A stretch of DNA of 64,000 bases from a virus: positions 32,235-96,234 of IMG/VR virus record IMGVR_UViG_3300030118_003002; one strand, written 5' to 3'. A model generated the notes under the pieces. The model made no database searches, had not been told where the DNA came from, and saw nothing but the letters and a program-made list of their open reading frames with translations. Below are positions 25,325 to 46,587 of this stretch, one piece after another. Position 1 is the first letter of the stretch. Each line of letters begins with the position of its first letter. The translations under genes were made by a program, and so were the position numbers.

Positions 25325-26838
25325 TCCTCTCTCAAAACTGCTACTTCGGTAGTTAGGAAAAGTTTTGCTATTGACATAGCCGCAAGGAAACTGTTTCTAG
25401 TTACCTTTACAGGGTCAACAATACCCAATTCAAACATATTTCCCACTTCACCTGTCATAGCATTTATTGATTCATTTGTTTCTAAAGGAAGATAATGCAA
25501 ATCATCAACACTACTGTTATCACATAAAGTAATAAACGGTGCAATTAACGATTCATACACTACATGATGACCCTTCTTTGCTACATCTAAAGAATCTCTA
25601 GCATTAAGAAGTGCCTTACCTCCACCAATAACAATACCTTCGTCAAGTGCTGCTTTAGTAGCATTAAGCGCATCATCTAATCTTTCTTTAGTTTCACGCA
25701 TTTCCATTTGTGAAGATGCACCAACTTGAATAGTAGCAATACCGCCATTCAATCTTGCTATCCGCTTTTTGTATCGCATCTTGTCATACTTGTCATCTGT
25801 TGATTCATACAACTCTTTCAATGAAAATACTTTGTGCTTCTTAGAATCTGAATCAGCATTACCTCCACCGATGATAACTGTATTATCTTTTGAAATAATT
25901 ACTCTATCAGCAGTTCCCAATTCATCTAAAGTAGCCATTGAAGGTTCATCTTCGCTTTCTTCGTTAAACATTTTACCGCCACAAACAGTTACAATATCGT
26001 CTAACTCATCTAATTGAGCATCACCGAAGTTTGGTGCTTTTACCACTGCTACTTCAATTGTCTTTTGAAGAACATTCATAATTACATTACTTAGTGCAGT
26101 GCCTTCCATACCACGACAAATGATTACCAATGGTTTCTTATTCTTAGCACATAATTCTAGCAACGGAAGTATTTCTTGAAAGTGTCTAATGTTCAGGTTA
26201 GATGAAAAGATAACGGGATTATCAAAGGTTACTTTGCCGTCTTCTCCATTACACATCATATGACTTAGATAGCCTTCATCAAACTCTAAACCGCTTCTTG
26301 TGACTATTTGTGTTTTATGAGTTTTAGATTCTTCAACAGTGATGATACCATCACGCCCTACCGCACTGATAGCCTCTTGAATTAGAGAACCTAACTCATC
26401 ATCATTATTAGCCGCAATAGTAGCAACATTCAGAATATCATCATCAAGAATAGGTATTGCGTTATCTATTAGATAAGAAGCAATAATTTCTTGAGCCTCT
26501 TGTAATTCATTTTGAAGCACTCTAATGTTATAATTCTCTTGTTTCTGAATATTCTCAACAAGTGCTTGAGCAATAATACAAGCAGTTGTTGTTCCATCGC
26601 CAGAATTATCTTGTGCTTTGCTTGCTAAGTTTTGCACCATTTGGACTCCCATTTGAACATAAGGGTCATTACTTGATACATACTTAGTAATTGTAACTCC
26701 GTCATTAATTATAACAGGAGGATTACCTTGCAAAATAACTGTTTTTGCTTGTGGCCCTAATGTTGGTTTAACGGTATTTGCTACTAAATCAATTCCTTCT
26801 TTCAATTTCTGTTTTACTTCTTCTCCATTAATTATCAT
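25321..26838 (-). CDS. groEL: Group I chaperonin GroEL-like
   Basis: TLGP, NDGVTI, GDGTTT, KAPNFGD, GIVIGGG, GIVDP. Confidence 0.93.
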   Translation of the reverse strand: MIINGEEVKQKLKEGIDLVANTVKPTLGPQAKTVILQGNPPVIINDGVTITKYVSSNDPYVQMGVQMVQNLASKAQDNSGDGTTTACIIAQALVENIQKQENYNIRVLQNELQEAQEIIASYLIDNAIPILDDDILNVATIAANNDDELGSLIQEAISAVGRDGIITVEESKTHKTQIVTRSGLEFDEGYLSHMMCNGEDGKVTFDNPVIFSSNLNIRHFQEILPLLELCAKNKKPLVIICRGMEGTALSNVIMNVLQKTIEVAVVKAPNFGDAQLDELDDIVTVCGGKMFNEESEDEPSMATLDELGTADRVIISKDNTVIIGGGNADSDSKKHKVFSLKELYESTDDKYDKMRYKKRIARLNGGIATIQVGASSQMEMRETKERLDDALNATKAALDEGIVIGGGKALLNARDSLDVAKKGHHVVYESLIAPFITLCDNSSVDDLHYLPLETNESINAMTGEVGNMFELGIVDPVKVTRNSFLAAMSIAKLFLTTEVAVLREE

Positions 26839-41867: not shown

Positions 41868-42029
41868 CGGGCTATGTGGGGTTCGAACCCACGACCAACG
41901 GGTATCTTTTGAGGAAAATGAGTTATGAGAAAGTATAACACATAATCGAAAATTGAGCAAGACCCCATTTATTACTTCGATAAAACCTCATTAAAAGCCC
42001 GTTGCGCTACCTGACTGCGCCAATAGCCC
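41868..42029 (-). tRNA. tRNA-Lys(UUU) with 88-nt intron (41904-41991) at position 37/38
   Basis: Acceptor GGGCTAT/ATAGCCC, D arm GCGC/GCGC, anticodon stem ACGGG/CCCGT, T arm GTGGG-TTCGAAC-CCCAC; exact BHB (CTTT/AAAG helix, TAA and ATA bulges, TGAGG/CCTCA); no encoded CCA. Confidence 0.93.
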
Positions 42030-43822: not shown

Positions 43823-43936
43823 TACTATGAATTACACTATTTCATATAGGGTTGGCTTCGCTAATCCTCAAAGTTACAACCATATGGTATGTCTTTTGAA
43901 CATACCTTATGATAAAGTAATTAAATTGATATTAAT

Positions 43937-44326
43937 ATGACATGGGTAAATATATCATGCAAGAATAACTGTGGAGAAACAATATCAGTAGGCCACTATG
44001 GACTAGGTGATTATGAAGATGAATATGCAGATTATGAAATCATCGCTACCTGTGGTGAATGTAATCGTGCAGAACAGGGTATTCCAAGCAAATACGAAGA
44101 AGAACGAACATATGAGGAATCTATGACCGATTTCAAAACTAGAGTTATGAACGAAGGAATTGATAATGTGATTGATTATCGGATTGTGTATGAAGGCAAT
44201 CTGAATGATGTAGTCCAATTTACTGTTAGTTTGTGGAAGGAACAATCACATCCTAGATATTTAGAGGCAATTTGGGGATTGTTGAAAACACTACCTAGTA
44301 ATGGATTAATGGTGGTGGCCGAGTAA
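43937..44326 (+). CDS. Hypothetical early protein with Cys motifs
   Basis: Own promoter and terminator; CKNNC...CGEC. Confidence 0.65.
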   Translation: MTWVNISCKNNCGETISVGHYGLGDYEDEYADYEIIATCGECNRAEQGIPSKYEEERTYEESMTDFKTRVMNEGIDNVIDYRIVYEGNLNDVVQFTVSLWKEQSHPRYLEAIWGLLKTLPSNGLMVVAE

Positions 44327-44350
44327 AAATCGGCCATCACCTATTTTTTT
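44311..44350 (+). terminator. Hairpin plus U-tract
   Basis: GGTGGTGGCCGA...TCGGCCATCACC then TATTTTTTT. Confidence 0.75.
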
Positions 44351-44438
44351 ATGGTCTGTGCCGTTGCTCAAAAGAACACTTCCAAACCATATGGTTGAGT
44401 CTTTTGAATAAACCCTAGATAAAGTATTGATAAACATA

Positions 44439-44822
44439 GTATTGTTCAGCAAGGGTTCGCTACCTTTGTTGGATAGTCAGTGGCCGAATACACTAGTAGC
44501 GGTGTAAGGCACTTCTTAACCGTGTGGTGCGGGTTTCACCCATTATCGGAAGTCCTATTGGATAGTATGATAGTGGTTCTTGAAGCGTATGTTCCTCAAA
44601 AGGGCATCAATTACCAATTGATGAATACATGAGAAGGTAGTGCGACCCTCAATTGAACAAAAGCAGTAAATTGAGTTACAAACTTAGTGGTGCAAGATAA
44701 TCCACTCCACTTCCTAGAACCAGAAATGGTATCTTCTAGGCTGACACCCTTTAGAATTCAGCGAGAGAGTCGAAAACTAAGCCGGTGGCTATCTCTCTCG
44801 CTGGATTCGCCTAAATTTTTTT
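44439..44822 (+). ncRNA. Putative structured non-coding RNA (~380 nt)
   Basis: Promoter upstream, terminator hairpin plus T-run downstream, long-range pairing 44442-44466 with 44634-44660, no credible ORF. Confidence 0.6.
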
Positions 44823-44875
44823 ATGGTTTATCCATTAATTCAAAAGAACCATTACTCAACCATATGGTTTGAACT

Positions 44876-45151
44876 TTGTCAAACCTTACATATAGTCGTT
44901 TAATTTATAACAACATGGAAACCAAAGTAAAATGGGGAACAACAGTCCATCCGGACAATACAATACTAAAGCAAGTAATTAGCAAGTTTGAAGACGAAGA
45001 AACAATGTTTCATATTTGGAATAGAGCAGTTGCTAATGATGATTTACCTAAAATGAAGCATTTTATGGATATTGAAGCATTAACTATTACTTCTCAAGCG
45101 TTTGTATCTTTTAACGAATACTTAGAATATATGGGAGATGAAGAAGAATGA
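44876..45151 (+). CDS. Hypothetical early protein (likely start METKVK)
   Basis: First of four short coupled ORFs running to about 45602. Confidence 0.6.
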   Translation: MSNLTYSRLIYNNMETKVKWGTTVHPDNTILKQVISKFEDEETMFHIWNRAVANDDLPKMKHFMDIEALTITSQAFVSFNEYLEYMGDEEE

Positions 45152-45602
45152 ATGATTATGAAATGATGAAGAAAATAATATTCAACTTGGCTGAATACCT
45201 AAATTGTCCTAATGAAGAATTAGAGAAAATGATAGGTGTTAGTTGGATGCGATTTCATAGTTTAGTAGCAAGATTGGAGGGAGAAGAAGAATGAGTTGTT
45301 ATGATTGTGGAAGTAATAAATTAGAGATGGAAGAAAGTTATACAGGCACTTGGTTCATTTGCTGTAAAGAATGTGAATGGGTCGAGATATACGATTTGTA
45401 TAAAGCAGATAATGAACCGGAAAATTATGGAGATGATTAAATGGATAGAATAGAAAAGATGAGAAAAAGAGTTGCTGAAGGTGAAGCATGGTGGGCAGAT
45501 TATGTCGCTAAAATAAATGAGCAGAATGCAGATAAAGTTGCTATTGGTTGTGTTTTGAATCCAGATAAGCCTTTAACATCTGAAAGAAGATATGTTGATT
45601 AA

Positions 45603-45637
45603 AGGGGATTGGGGCGAAAGCCCCATCCTCTTTTTTT
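45603..45637 (+). terminator. Hairpin (GAAA-type loop) plus U-tract
   Basis: GGGGATTGGGGC-GAAA-GCCCCATCCTC-TTTTTTT. Confidence 0.8.
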
Positions 45638-45886
45638 AACAGATAAGGTAGCACAAAGTCGCTACCATATGGTTGTGTCACACTTTGGTAATACGGAGTA
45701 TTTGACACAACCCTATTAAAAAAAATAGTGGGCGGAAGGGGAAACAGCGAGTGTCCTTTGGTTTTCTCACTGTTTCCCCCTTCCTACTCTTCCGCATTGA
45801 CCTATGTTCAGATTCAATTGTAATTTTAACAGGTGTTACCGGATGCCCGTAGGAATCGTATGGGGCTTAAAGGGATTGAATCGGTA

Positions 45887-46447
45887 TCACACGGCATCCT
45901 CCTCTTGGGATTCTTCCGTTTCTTCCTCGTCTGAGGAATTGGACTTCATAGGCGGAGTCATGCCTGTTAGTCCACTATCGCTCATAGTTCCATCCCAGCG
46001 ACCATCTTTCAATGCCGCTTTTAGAACTCTTACAGCCTTTGTTGCCATATCAGAAGCCAATGCTTCAATGTCAGCGTATGCGCCACCTGTTTTACCATGT
46101 GGCAGCATTACTTCAAGTAGCAAGTCAGCGTCTGAAATTGTGACAAATGCATTTTGAATGCGATTGCTCACAGAATCCACAACTGCCTGAATTGCTGGGT
46201 CTAGCGTTGAGCCACGACCTTTCTTTATTGGCGAGTTTGGGAGGGTCTTGCATAATGCCCGAACTGCTTCCCAAAAACGATTTCTGTCATCATCAGATGC
46301 GGCTGAATCGCCAGCATCTAGATTTACTGTTATTACTGCTCCCATAGCCCCTGCATCATTATGCTCAAGCCATGCTCTAATTTCGTTAGACTTTGTTATC
46401 CACTTTTCTTGTTCCATTCTTTTCATCTCCTGTATTGACTCCATCAA
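45887..46447 (-). CDS. Paralog family member 2 (likely start 46417, MEQEKW)
   Basis: Identical block DRNRFWEAVRALCKTLPNSPIKKGRGSTL shared with 46697-47185. Confidence 0.8.
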   Translation of the reverse strand: MMESIQEMKRMEQEKWITKSNEIRAWLEHNDAGAMGAVITVNLDAGDSAASDDDRNRFWEAVRALCKTLPNSPIKKGRGSTLDPAIQAVVDSVSNRIQNAFVTISDADLLLEVMLPHGKTGGAYADIEALASDMATKAVRVLKAALKDGRWDGTMSDSGLTGMTPPMKSNSSDEEETEESQEEDAV

Positions 46448-46587
46448 TACCGACTCAATCCCTTTGAGCCACTACTATCCAATAACCTACTTTATGTAAG
46501 GTTGCTCAAAGATGCAACCATATGGTAATAAATATTCATGTAATGAATACACTTTGGTTTTACTACCCTAAAATAAAAAAATAAGGC

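Follow-up and report, generated by a model that had tools for sequence, protein, structure and literature searches.

What is made from a stretch of viral DNA that is bounded by a promoter-like module on one side and by a T-run on the other, and in which no conserved open reading frame is found? This question is raised by positions 44444-44822 of the window, that is, of the whole 64,000-nucleotide stretch of DNA analysed here (G000:C1:32235-96234 of a 96,234-base IMG/VR virus record, rated complete by CheckV). The answer to which the comparative evidence leads, with a probability of slightly less than 0.8, is that the locus is a stand-alone structured non-coding RNA gene of the manA lineage, divergent and enlarged with respect to the manA motif of the Rfam collection (RF01745).

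The genetic surroundings of the locus are those of a virus with archaeal affinities. In particular, the window encodes a family-B DNA polymerase, a class-II-type ribonucleotide reductase and a UvrD helicase, together with an archaeal/eukaryotic-type ATP-dependent DNA ligase and a thermosome-type chaperonin, and its polymerase is closest to those of tailed haloarchaeal viruses, at 25-27% identity. Moreover, a tRNA gene (Rfam tRNA, 53.6 bits), missed by ARAGORN, extends over 162 nt of the minus strand at 41868-42029, a span that implies a long intron of about 88 nt. Magroviruses are viruses of Marine Group II archaea (Philosof et al. 2017, PMC5434244), and both the gene content and the tRNA intron are compatible with these Marine Group II magroviruses (PMC5434244), so that the virus fits the description of magrovirus-like; its gene content points to an archaeal host.

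The RNA unit is placed between the hairpin and T7 run that end the gene at 43937-44326 and the promoter module of the gene starting at 44916. It is preceded by a ACCATATGGT palindrome, whose copy lies at 44386-44395, and by a ACCCTAGATAAAG box, in the same arrangement that precedes the adjoining leaderless genes, as the original prediction, made from the letters of this DNA, had noticed. The palindrome occurs in five exact copies in the 64,000-nt window, against 0.08 expected. All five are located at 43879-46526 and have CAAAG and CTTTG flanks, indicating that the real palindrome is about 30-38 bp long; several of these copies serve divergent units, on both strands. In the two neighbouring genes, at 43937 and 44916, a box of the ACC(C/T)TA(T/G)A type precedes the ATG by 19-25 nt; these genes therefore produce leaderless mRNAs whose start site can be read from the sequence. 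By the same ruler, the RNA is predicted to start around 44443-44445, about 20 nt past its box and at the first base of helix P1. At the other end, the anticipated T-run is present as T7 and is likely an archaeal termination signal. The features of the locus are collected in Table 1.

Table 1. Positions of the promoter-proximal, structural and terminal features of the RNA gene in the window
Feature	Positions	Strand	Description
Operator-like module	44369..44406	.	CAAAAG-n11-ACCATATGGT-n5-CTTTTG; upstream of the RNA gene
BRE/TATA-like box	44410..44424	+	AAACCCTAGATAAAG; ATAGTATTG next downstream
Predicted transcript	44444..44822	+	About 380 nt; manA-like core 44444-44752, 3′ hairpin and U-run
P1 hairpin	44443..44475	+	14 bp in the window's lineage, loop UCGCU; aligned to the first manA hairpin
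P2 closing stem	44476..44480 with 44741..44745	+	GUCAG/CUGAC; 5/5 pairs; encloses about 260 nt
P3	44483..44510	+	Outer stem GCC/GGC, internal loops GAAUA and UAA, inner stem ACACU/GGUGU
P4 domain	44512..44636	+	Stem CUUCU 44512-16 with AGAAG 44632-36
P4a	44520-32	+	CCG-UGUGGUG-CGG; inside P4; GUGGUG loop common to manA
Middle domain	44533..44628	+	Magrovirus-specific; in place of the two small hairpins of manA
P4b	44533-38/44581-86	+	Middle domain
P4c	44540-76	+	Middle domain
P4f	44587-90/44625-28	+	Middle domain
P4d	44594-604	+	CCU-CAAAA-GGG; middle domain
P4e	44605-23	+	Middle domain
P5 three-way junction	44637..44711	+	P5a 44648-75, linker UUACAAACUU, P5b 44686-706
P6 hairpin	44713..44740	+	CCUAGAA/UUCUAGG, inner CCA/UGG
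P2 3′ strand and tail	44741..44752	+	CUGAC followed by conserved single-stranded ACCCUUU
3′ hairpin	44754..44808	+	GAATTCAGCGAGAGAG/CTCTCTCGCTGGATTC; lineage-specific, 16 bp; -30.2 kcal/mol, z -5.19
T7 run	44816..44822	+	Next promoter module begins at 44859

The plus strand of 44444-44822 folds with a minimum free energy of -125.4 kcal/mol (z -4.57), a value that was equalled by 0 of 100 shuffled sequences, and the G+C content of the RNA region is, as anticipated, above that of its surroundings (0.435 vs 0.343 for the window). In the structure model of the window's RNA all 111 base pairs are standard; 11 of them are G-U pairs, which would become A-C on the other strand, and the plus strand is thereby fixed as the functional one. 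No conserved ORF was detected, the longest ones occupying different strands, frames and places even in relatives of nearly identical sequence, which excludes the conserved small ORF that had been named as the explanation to be ruled out. Together with the covariation described below, these results bear out the view of the locus as an ORF-less structured RNA gene of about 380 nt, delimited by a promoter-like module and a T-run.

Homologues were collected with nhmmer and with pattern scans of the loci around the helicase gene in related viruses, in IMG/VR and in marine metagenomes. This search provided 18 distinct sequences, deriving from 9 viral contigs (the window's and 8 other magrovirus-like IMG/VR contigs) and from about 13 marine metagenome contigs, which group into five sequence lineages, A (that of the window), B, C, D and E, with a mean column identity of 56%. 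The cassette lies 2.7-5 kb from the helicase gene, with respect to which it is inverted in L004 and L014. In each of the 16 homologues with upstream DNA, the CAAAG..ACCATATGGT..CTTTG module precedes the RNA by 52-65 nt, and the ACC(C/T)TA(T/G)A-type box precedes P1 at a constant distance in every lineage. Downstream of the RNA, each copy has a 3′ part peculiar to its lineage, which in most lineages is followed by a T-run; the next promoter module comes after these, and in no copy does an ORF intervene between it and the RNA. The T-run measures at least 5 in lineages A, B and E2 and in some members of lineage C, and the end in lineage D reads UUUUAUU.

The RNA was undetected by model R1 (see below) or by the Rfam manA model in 5 related records (L005, L006, L007, L011 and L013), whose helicases are 61-76% identical and one of which is a complete genome with terminal repeats; the RNA is therefore dispensable and behaves as an accessory cassette. 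When 185,579 prokaryote genomes were scanned with a relaxed pattern, 38 matches were returned, none of which was confirmed by model R2, and hence the family was not found in cellular genomes via this route. Likewise, near and distant DNA searches of the INPHARED phage records gave no match. Two 18-mer scans of IMG/VR yielded mostly chance matches, discarded by model R1, and four candidates from the metagenome pattern scan (L040, L048, L051 and L053) proved to be chance matches without alignment to the family.

The homologues, whose collection had been suggested as a check for covariation, display strong covariation across the 18 sequences. The closing stem P2 is perfectly complementary in 18/18 sequences, in six different forms (GUCAG/CUGAC, GUUGG/CCAAC, GACAU/AUGUC, GGAGA/UCUCC, GGGAU/AUCCC and GGUGA/UCACC), none of them broken, and seven different complementary forms occur for the P4 stem. 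Three covariance models were used: R1 for the 5′ third (P1, P3 and P4a; magrovirus sequences only), R2 for the middle domain and R3 for the 3′ domain. In the R1 alignment 96.0% of the cells are paired and both sides have changed in 11 of 17 pairs; slid controls, in which partners were shifted by 1-3 columns, are paired in 24-49% of cells. Specifically, P1 is paired in 94.8% of cells, with both-side changes in 5/6 pairs, and the P3 helices in 100% and 92.5%. The middle domain is paired in 86.9% of cells, with both-side changes in 28 of 37 pairs and slid controls at 36-44%. The best preserved elements here are the P4 stem (94% paired, 5/5 pairs covarying), P4a (100%, 3/3), P4e (95%, 6/6), P4d (100%) and the tip of P4c (98.5%), followed by P4b (87%), P4f (78%) and the lower stem of P4c (59-70%). 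The length of this domain stays within 117-126 nt in 18/18 sequences.

The alignments of the 5′ third and of the middle domain were fitted to their models, a procedure that favours structure; the covariation signal can be considered real because of the slid controls and because a plain MAFFT alignment leaves 5/5 pairs of P2 unbroken. In the 3′ domain the family-wide column test is weak (60.6% paired vs 37-46% in controls), since R3 did not realign lineages A, B and D, and for this reason per-sequence folds were relied upon. Separate minimum free energy folds place the P5 three-way junction (P5a and P5b), followed by P6, in 11/11 sequences of lineages C, D and E, and the same layout was obtained for 3/4 of lineage B. 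The outer stem of P5 is weak, with AGUG at 44639-42 facing CACU at 44708-11 and just 3-4 bp in the window's lineage.

These data also allow the single helices of the original prediction to be placed. The hairpin CATCAATT/AATTGATG (44605-44623) is maintained in every lineage by compensatory changes, TACAC/GTGTA (44489-44506) corresponds to the inner stem of P3, CCTAGAA/TTCTAGG (44713-44740) is present, and the 16-bp hairpin formed by GAATTCAGCGAGAGAG and CTCTCTCGCTGGATTC (44754-44808) is real, with a z of -5.2; all pairs of the latter are kept in relative L042 despite 2 substitutions. A different fate befell the long helix that had been proposed to close a ~220-nt multibranch domain by pairing 44442-44466 with 44634-44660. 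The two segments are complementary in lineage A only and are unused by the minimum free energy fold, and the helix is rejected for its lack of conservation; it also clashes with the comparatively supported P1 (44443-44475) and P5a (44648-44675), and is at most an alternative conformer. As for the tail, its ACC can pair with the GGU of the P4a loop, a contact compatible with 18/18 sequences; only L014 has an altered P4a loop (AGU), and its tail is altered too (ACU). Pairing of the tail with the CAAAAGGG hairpin was considered and rejected, as lineage E1 alters this hairpin (GCU/GGC) with the tail unaltered.

Past the core, the lineages part ways, with 3′ modules other than the window's 16-bp hairpin in the remaining ones. 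Specifically, lineages B (L045), C and E2 carry an extra conserved 3′ module of about 140 nt, where the window's lineage has the single hairpin. This module consists of CCUAUGGCG..GGCCAUAAAACCAUAG..AAAGCCGAAAC..GGAGUAGGCGGCGUUUCU, then a U-run, and is found at L045:880-1035 (-), L054:3470-3630 (-), L050:2200-2355 (-) and L014:6855-7030 (+); it has no Rfam match.

The manA RNA has so far been known from cyanophages, two gamma-proteobacteria and marine metagenomes, and it has been an orphan riboswitch candidate since 2010. A search of Rfam with Infernal had been indicated at the outset as a check. At gathering thresholds nothing matched the RNA region, the only match in the window being the tRNA located elsewhere. 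With E-value thresholds, the only notable match was manA (RF01745), on the plus strand, which the window's RNA matches with 25.8 bits (E 1.3e-4) in a 651-base search and with 26.2 bits (E 3.3e-6) in the genome, less than half the curated cut-off of 55.2 bits. The best relatives remain below this cut-off as well, with lineage D matching the full model (1-192) at 45.3, 44.8 and 39.5 bits (E 1.1e-8 to 5.7e-7) and lineages A and C more weakly than lineage D.

The match is in register with the structure. P1, the closing stem, P4, P5, the GUGGUG hairpin and the GGUGCAAAUCC hairpin fall on matching positions of RF01745, as do the motifs UGGCUGAAUAA, GGUAAGG and the tail CCACCCU. The signature unpaired nucleotides of manA (consensus UGaCUGAAUAA, UAAgG, the GUGGUG loop and the aCcuu tail) are all present in the window, namely as UGGCCGAAUA at 44481-90, directly following the 5′ strand of P2 and conserved in the family, GUAAGG at 44504-09, UGUGGUG at 44523-29 and ACCCUUU at 44746-52; P3 bears the motifs CYGAAUA and GUAAGG aligned to the manA consensus. 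Moreover, the helix order of the manA core, with covariation, is found here: P1, closing stem, P3, P4, GUGGUG hairpin, P5 and P6, and the P6 loop of lineages C, D and E (GGUA..CAAUCC) resembles that of the last manA hairpin. The two short hairpins that manA has within P4, one of them with an ACCA loop, are missing from the window's RNA, and cmscan deletes RF01745 positions ~83-115 in favour of an insertion of 81-90 nt, which is the middle domain.

The search works in the opposite direction too. The bona fide manA of Prochlorococcus phage P-SSM2, which scores 181.6 bits with the Rfam model (L064:1501-1698), is found in register by R1 at L064:1495-1583, with 20.9 bits and an E of 9.5e-5 over 3.2 kb; model R2 of the middle domain gave no match to it. 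R2 in turn links lineage D and the window's lineage, with E below 1e-11 for 18/18 sequences. The tie of the window's RNA to manA rests in part on transitivity through lineage D. Consequently, the original prediction of a novel viral non-coding RNA of an unrecognised family stands as regards a viral structured RNA gene and falls as regards the novelty of the family, the RNA being a distant and enlarged homologue of manA. It is classified here as a variant rather than an ordinary manA member because it falls short of the Rfam cut-off, of one structural feature and of the 5′-UTR location.

A direct comparison makes both the kinship and the distance apparent. The manA RNA of P-SSM2 (AY939844, 142837-143034) has the same helix order as the window's RNA. 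The two have in common a 5-bp closing stem, P3 with its GAAUA and UAA loops, the GUGGUG hairpin in a multi-stem P4, a long P5, P6, the ACCYUU tail and a marine viral setting, and manA and the magrovirus RNA give significant covariance-model matches in both directions. In contrast, the core measures about 300 nt in the magrovirus RNA and 190 in manA, a conserved four-helix domain of about 95 nt with CCUCAAAAGGG stands in place of the two small hairpins, and P5 is a three-way junction. Unlike manA, the magrovirus RNA belongs to archaeal viruses and has its own promoter module and T-run, with no ORF directly downstream; in other words, manA is classed by Rfam as cis-regulatory and located in 5′ UTRs, whereas the window's RNA is a separate unit. 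In its general appearance the magrovirus RNA recalls ROOL, GOLLD, OLE and raiA, which are large, ornate, stand-alone RNA genes, often borne by phages; none of these matches the window's RNA even at E values up to 10.

Whether such an RNA would be expected to act on a neighbouring gene is suggested by the literature on manA, proposed as a riboswitch candidate (Weinberg et al. 2010, PMC2864571) that is located in the 5′ UTRs of ibpA and of genes involved in mannose/fructose metabolism, in the synthesis of nucleotides and in photosynthesis (PMC2864571). By analogy, the core could bind a metabolite and set the passage of RNA polymerase through the hairpin and U7, thus controlling the small early genes from 44916 onward as a cis riboswitch or attenuator. 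A strong hairpin and a U-run do follow the core in the window, the P-SSM2 manA ends 16 nt before the ATG of purL, and lineage E1 has an 18-codon ORF 12 nt past the tail. Nevertheless, the gene downstream of the RNA in the window has a complete palindrome-plus-box module of its own and a leaderless ATG, the 3′ part past the core is wholly different between lineages and no alternative pairing of this part with core sequences is conserved, the gene that comes next in lineage D is encoded on the other strand, and the orientation of the cassette varies between genomes. In addition, manA is not known to have a ligand. Control in cis is thus unlikely, and a trans-acting particle, possibly oligomeric, is favoured over it because of the constant core and variable periphery and of the separate transcription units.

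The remaining explanations are less probable still. That the RNA represents an independent family, with a likeness to manA arisen by convergence or by chance short motifs, would agree with Rfam scores that all lie below the gathering cut-off of 55.2, with the roughly one third of the molecule that has no manA counterpart and with hosts from different domains of life; it is made quite improbable by an alignment that spans the full manA model with helices in the same order, by the unpaired UGRCYGAAUA, GUAAGG, GUGGUG loop and ACCYUU tail at the same places as in manA, and by E values of 1e-8 in one direction and of 9.5e-5 over 3.2 kb in the other. An antisense regulator, whose open segments would pair with viral or host mRNAs, could account for the tail ACCCUUU and several loops being conserved and unpaired. 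The number of complementary 10-mers between the RNA and the rest of the window, however, is 65 vs a mean of 66 for shuffled RNA, and the sole long match, 16 nt within the thermosome gene, has both sequences in the sense orientation and therefore cannot pair, which makes this function very improbable. Finally, the region between the modules is rich in palindromes and the window contains short ORFs (50 and 61 codons), as would suit an element acting as DNA (an origin, a packaging site or a protein-binding array) or a small protein gene; both are scarcely credible given that the G-U pairs, and the exchanges of G-U to G-C or A-U, hold on one strand only, that substitutions keep pairing and neither sequence nor reading frame, and that the ORFs are unconserved even among close relatives.

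The reading as a stand-alone RNA gene of the manA lineage suggests the following sequence of events. The host RNA polymerase would start about 20 nt past the ACCCTAGATAAAG box, governed by a factor binding the ACCATATGGT palindrome, and transcription would stop at the U-run, with the 3′ hairpin stabilising the RNA end. The transcript would fold into the manA core (P1, P2, P3, GUGGUG hairpin, P5 and P6) plus the conserved extra domain of about 95 nt and, as an RNA particle, would exert its action in trans rather than switching the downstream gene. A 2026 cryo-EM preprint reports decamers and a cage of 60 subunits formed in vitro by bacterial and phage manA RNAs (10.64898/2026.07.01.735769), the contacts between copies being kissing loops on peripheral helices around the conserved core (10.64898/2026.07.01.735769). 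The core fold of these self-assembling RNAs is presumably the same as that of the magrovirus RNA, and a constant core with a variable periphery is found in them as in the magrovirus lineages; the contact loops described in the preprint (L5-L7′, L8-L9′ and L3-L8′) are not mappable onto the magrovirus variant. By analogy with these structures, copies of the window's RNA might join via peripheral loops into a defined oligomer, which could bind or sequester a viral or host component. A scaffold role of this kind would be compatible with the self-assembly of manA described in the preprint (10.64898/2026.07.01.735769), and self-assembly of the window's RNA is put forward here as a tentative mechanism, with the odds against it.

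In this context, the P1 loops of several relatives are 6-nt palindromes, UAAUUA in L008 and L036 and UCAUGA in L050, L054, L010, L009 and L012, and the two forms, belonging to lineages C and E, differ by a compensatory pair of changes. Such covariation in a palindrome is what would be expected if the loop paired with the identical loop of a second molecule, and is taken here as a thin hint; it does not occur in the window's lineage, where the loop reads UCGCU.

A bolder proposal, which we consider rather doubtful, is that manA-type RNAs in general are not riboswitches but free-standing viral RNA particles, employed by bacterial and archaeal viruses alike, and that in Poseidoniales the magrovirus RNA, with its additional conserved domain, would form an RNA-only oligomer or cage holding or masking a cargo. 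If true, this would be the first RNA family, and the first principle of RNA assembly, common to viruses of two domains of life. Independently of this proposal, the existence of a stand-alone, enlarged homologue argues that the function of the core needs neither the bacterial gene-control machinery nor a neighbouring gene. The host range of manA is widened across domains of life, a sizeable share of the family escapes the manA model of Rfam, and natural variants with the same core and a different periphery provide material for testing the biological role of the self-assembly observed in vitro.

Some further observations concern single members of the family and the window itself. In P-SSM2 (L064:1460-1720, AY939844 ~142796-143056), a TTGACA-17-TATAAT promoter-like site is found directly upstream of manA and a U7 directly past its tail, and this manA could be made as a separate short RNA. 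The 18-codon ORF of lineage E1 (L010:6490-6562 (-), likewise in L009 and L012) reads MPLSEEKAMIEAEKGTYV and is followed by a CCCC-UUUU-GGGG hairpin; its coding capacity is doubtful, because a 1-nt indel in L012 changes the C-terminus. At L038:1-60, on a contig edge, part of the RNA's 3′ end occurs a second time (profile positions 235-294, with an E of 2e-4); the complete copy lies 1.3 kb downstream of it. Some viruses may have two copies of the RNA. Lastly, the 16-nt GTAAGGCACTTCTTAA (44504-44519), which includes both GUAAGG and the 5′ side of the P4 stem, is found again in inverted orientation at 25604-25619 of the window, inside the minus-strand thermosome gene, so that the RNA and the mRNA are identical, sense to sense, over this segment; the chance expectation for such a 16-nt match is about 0.01.
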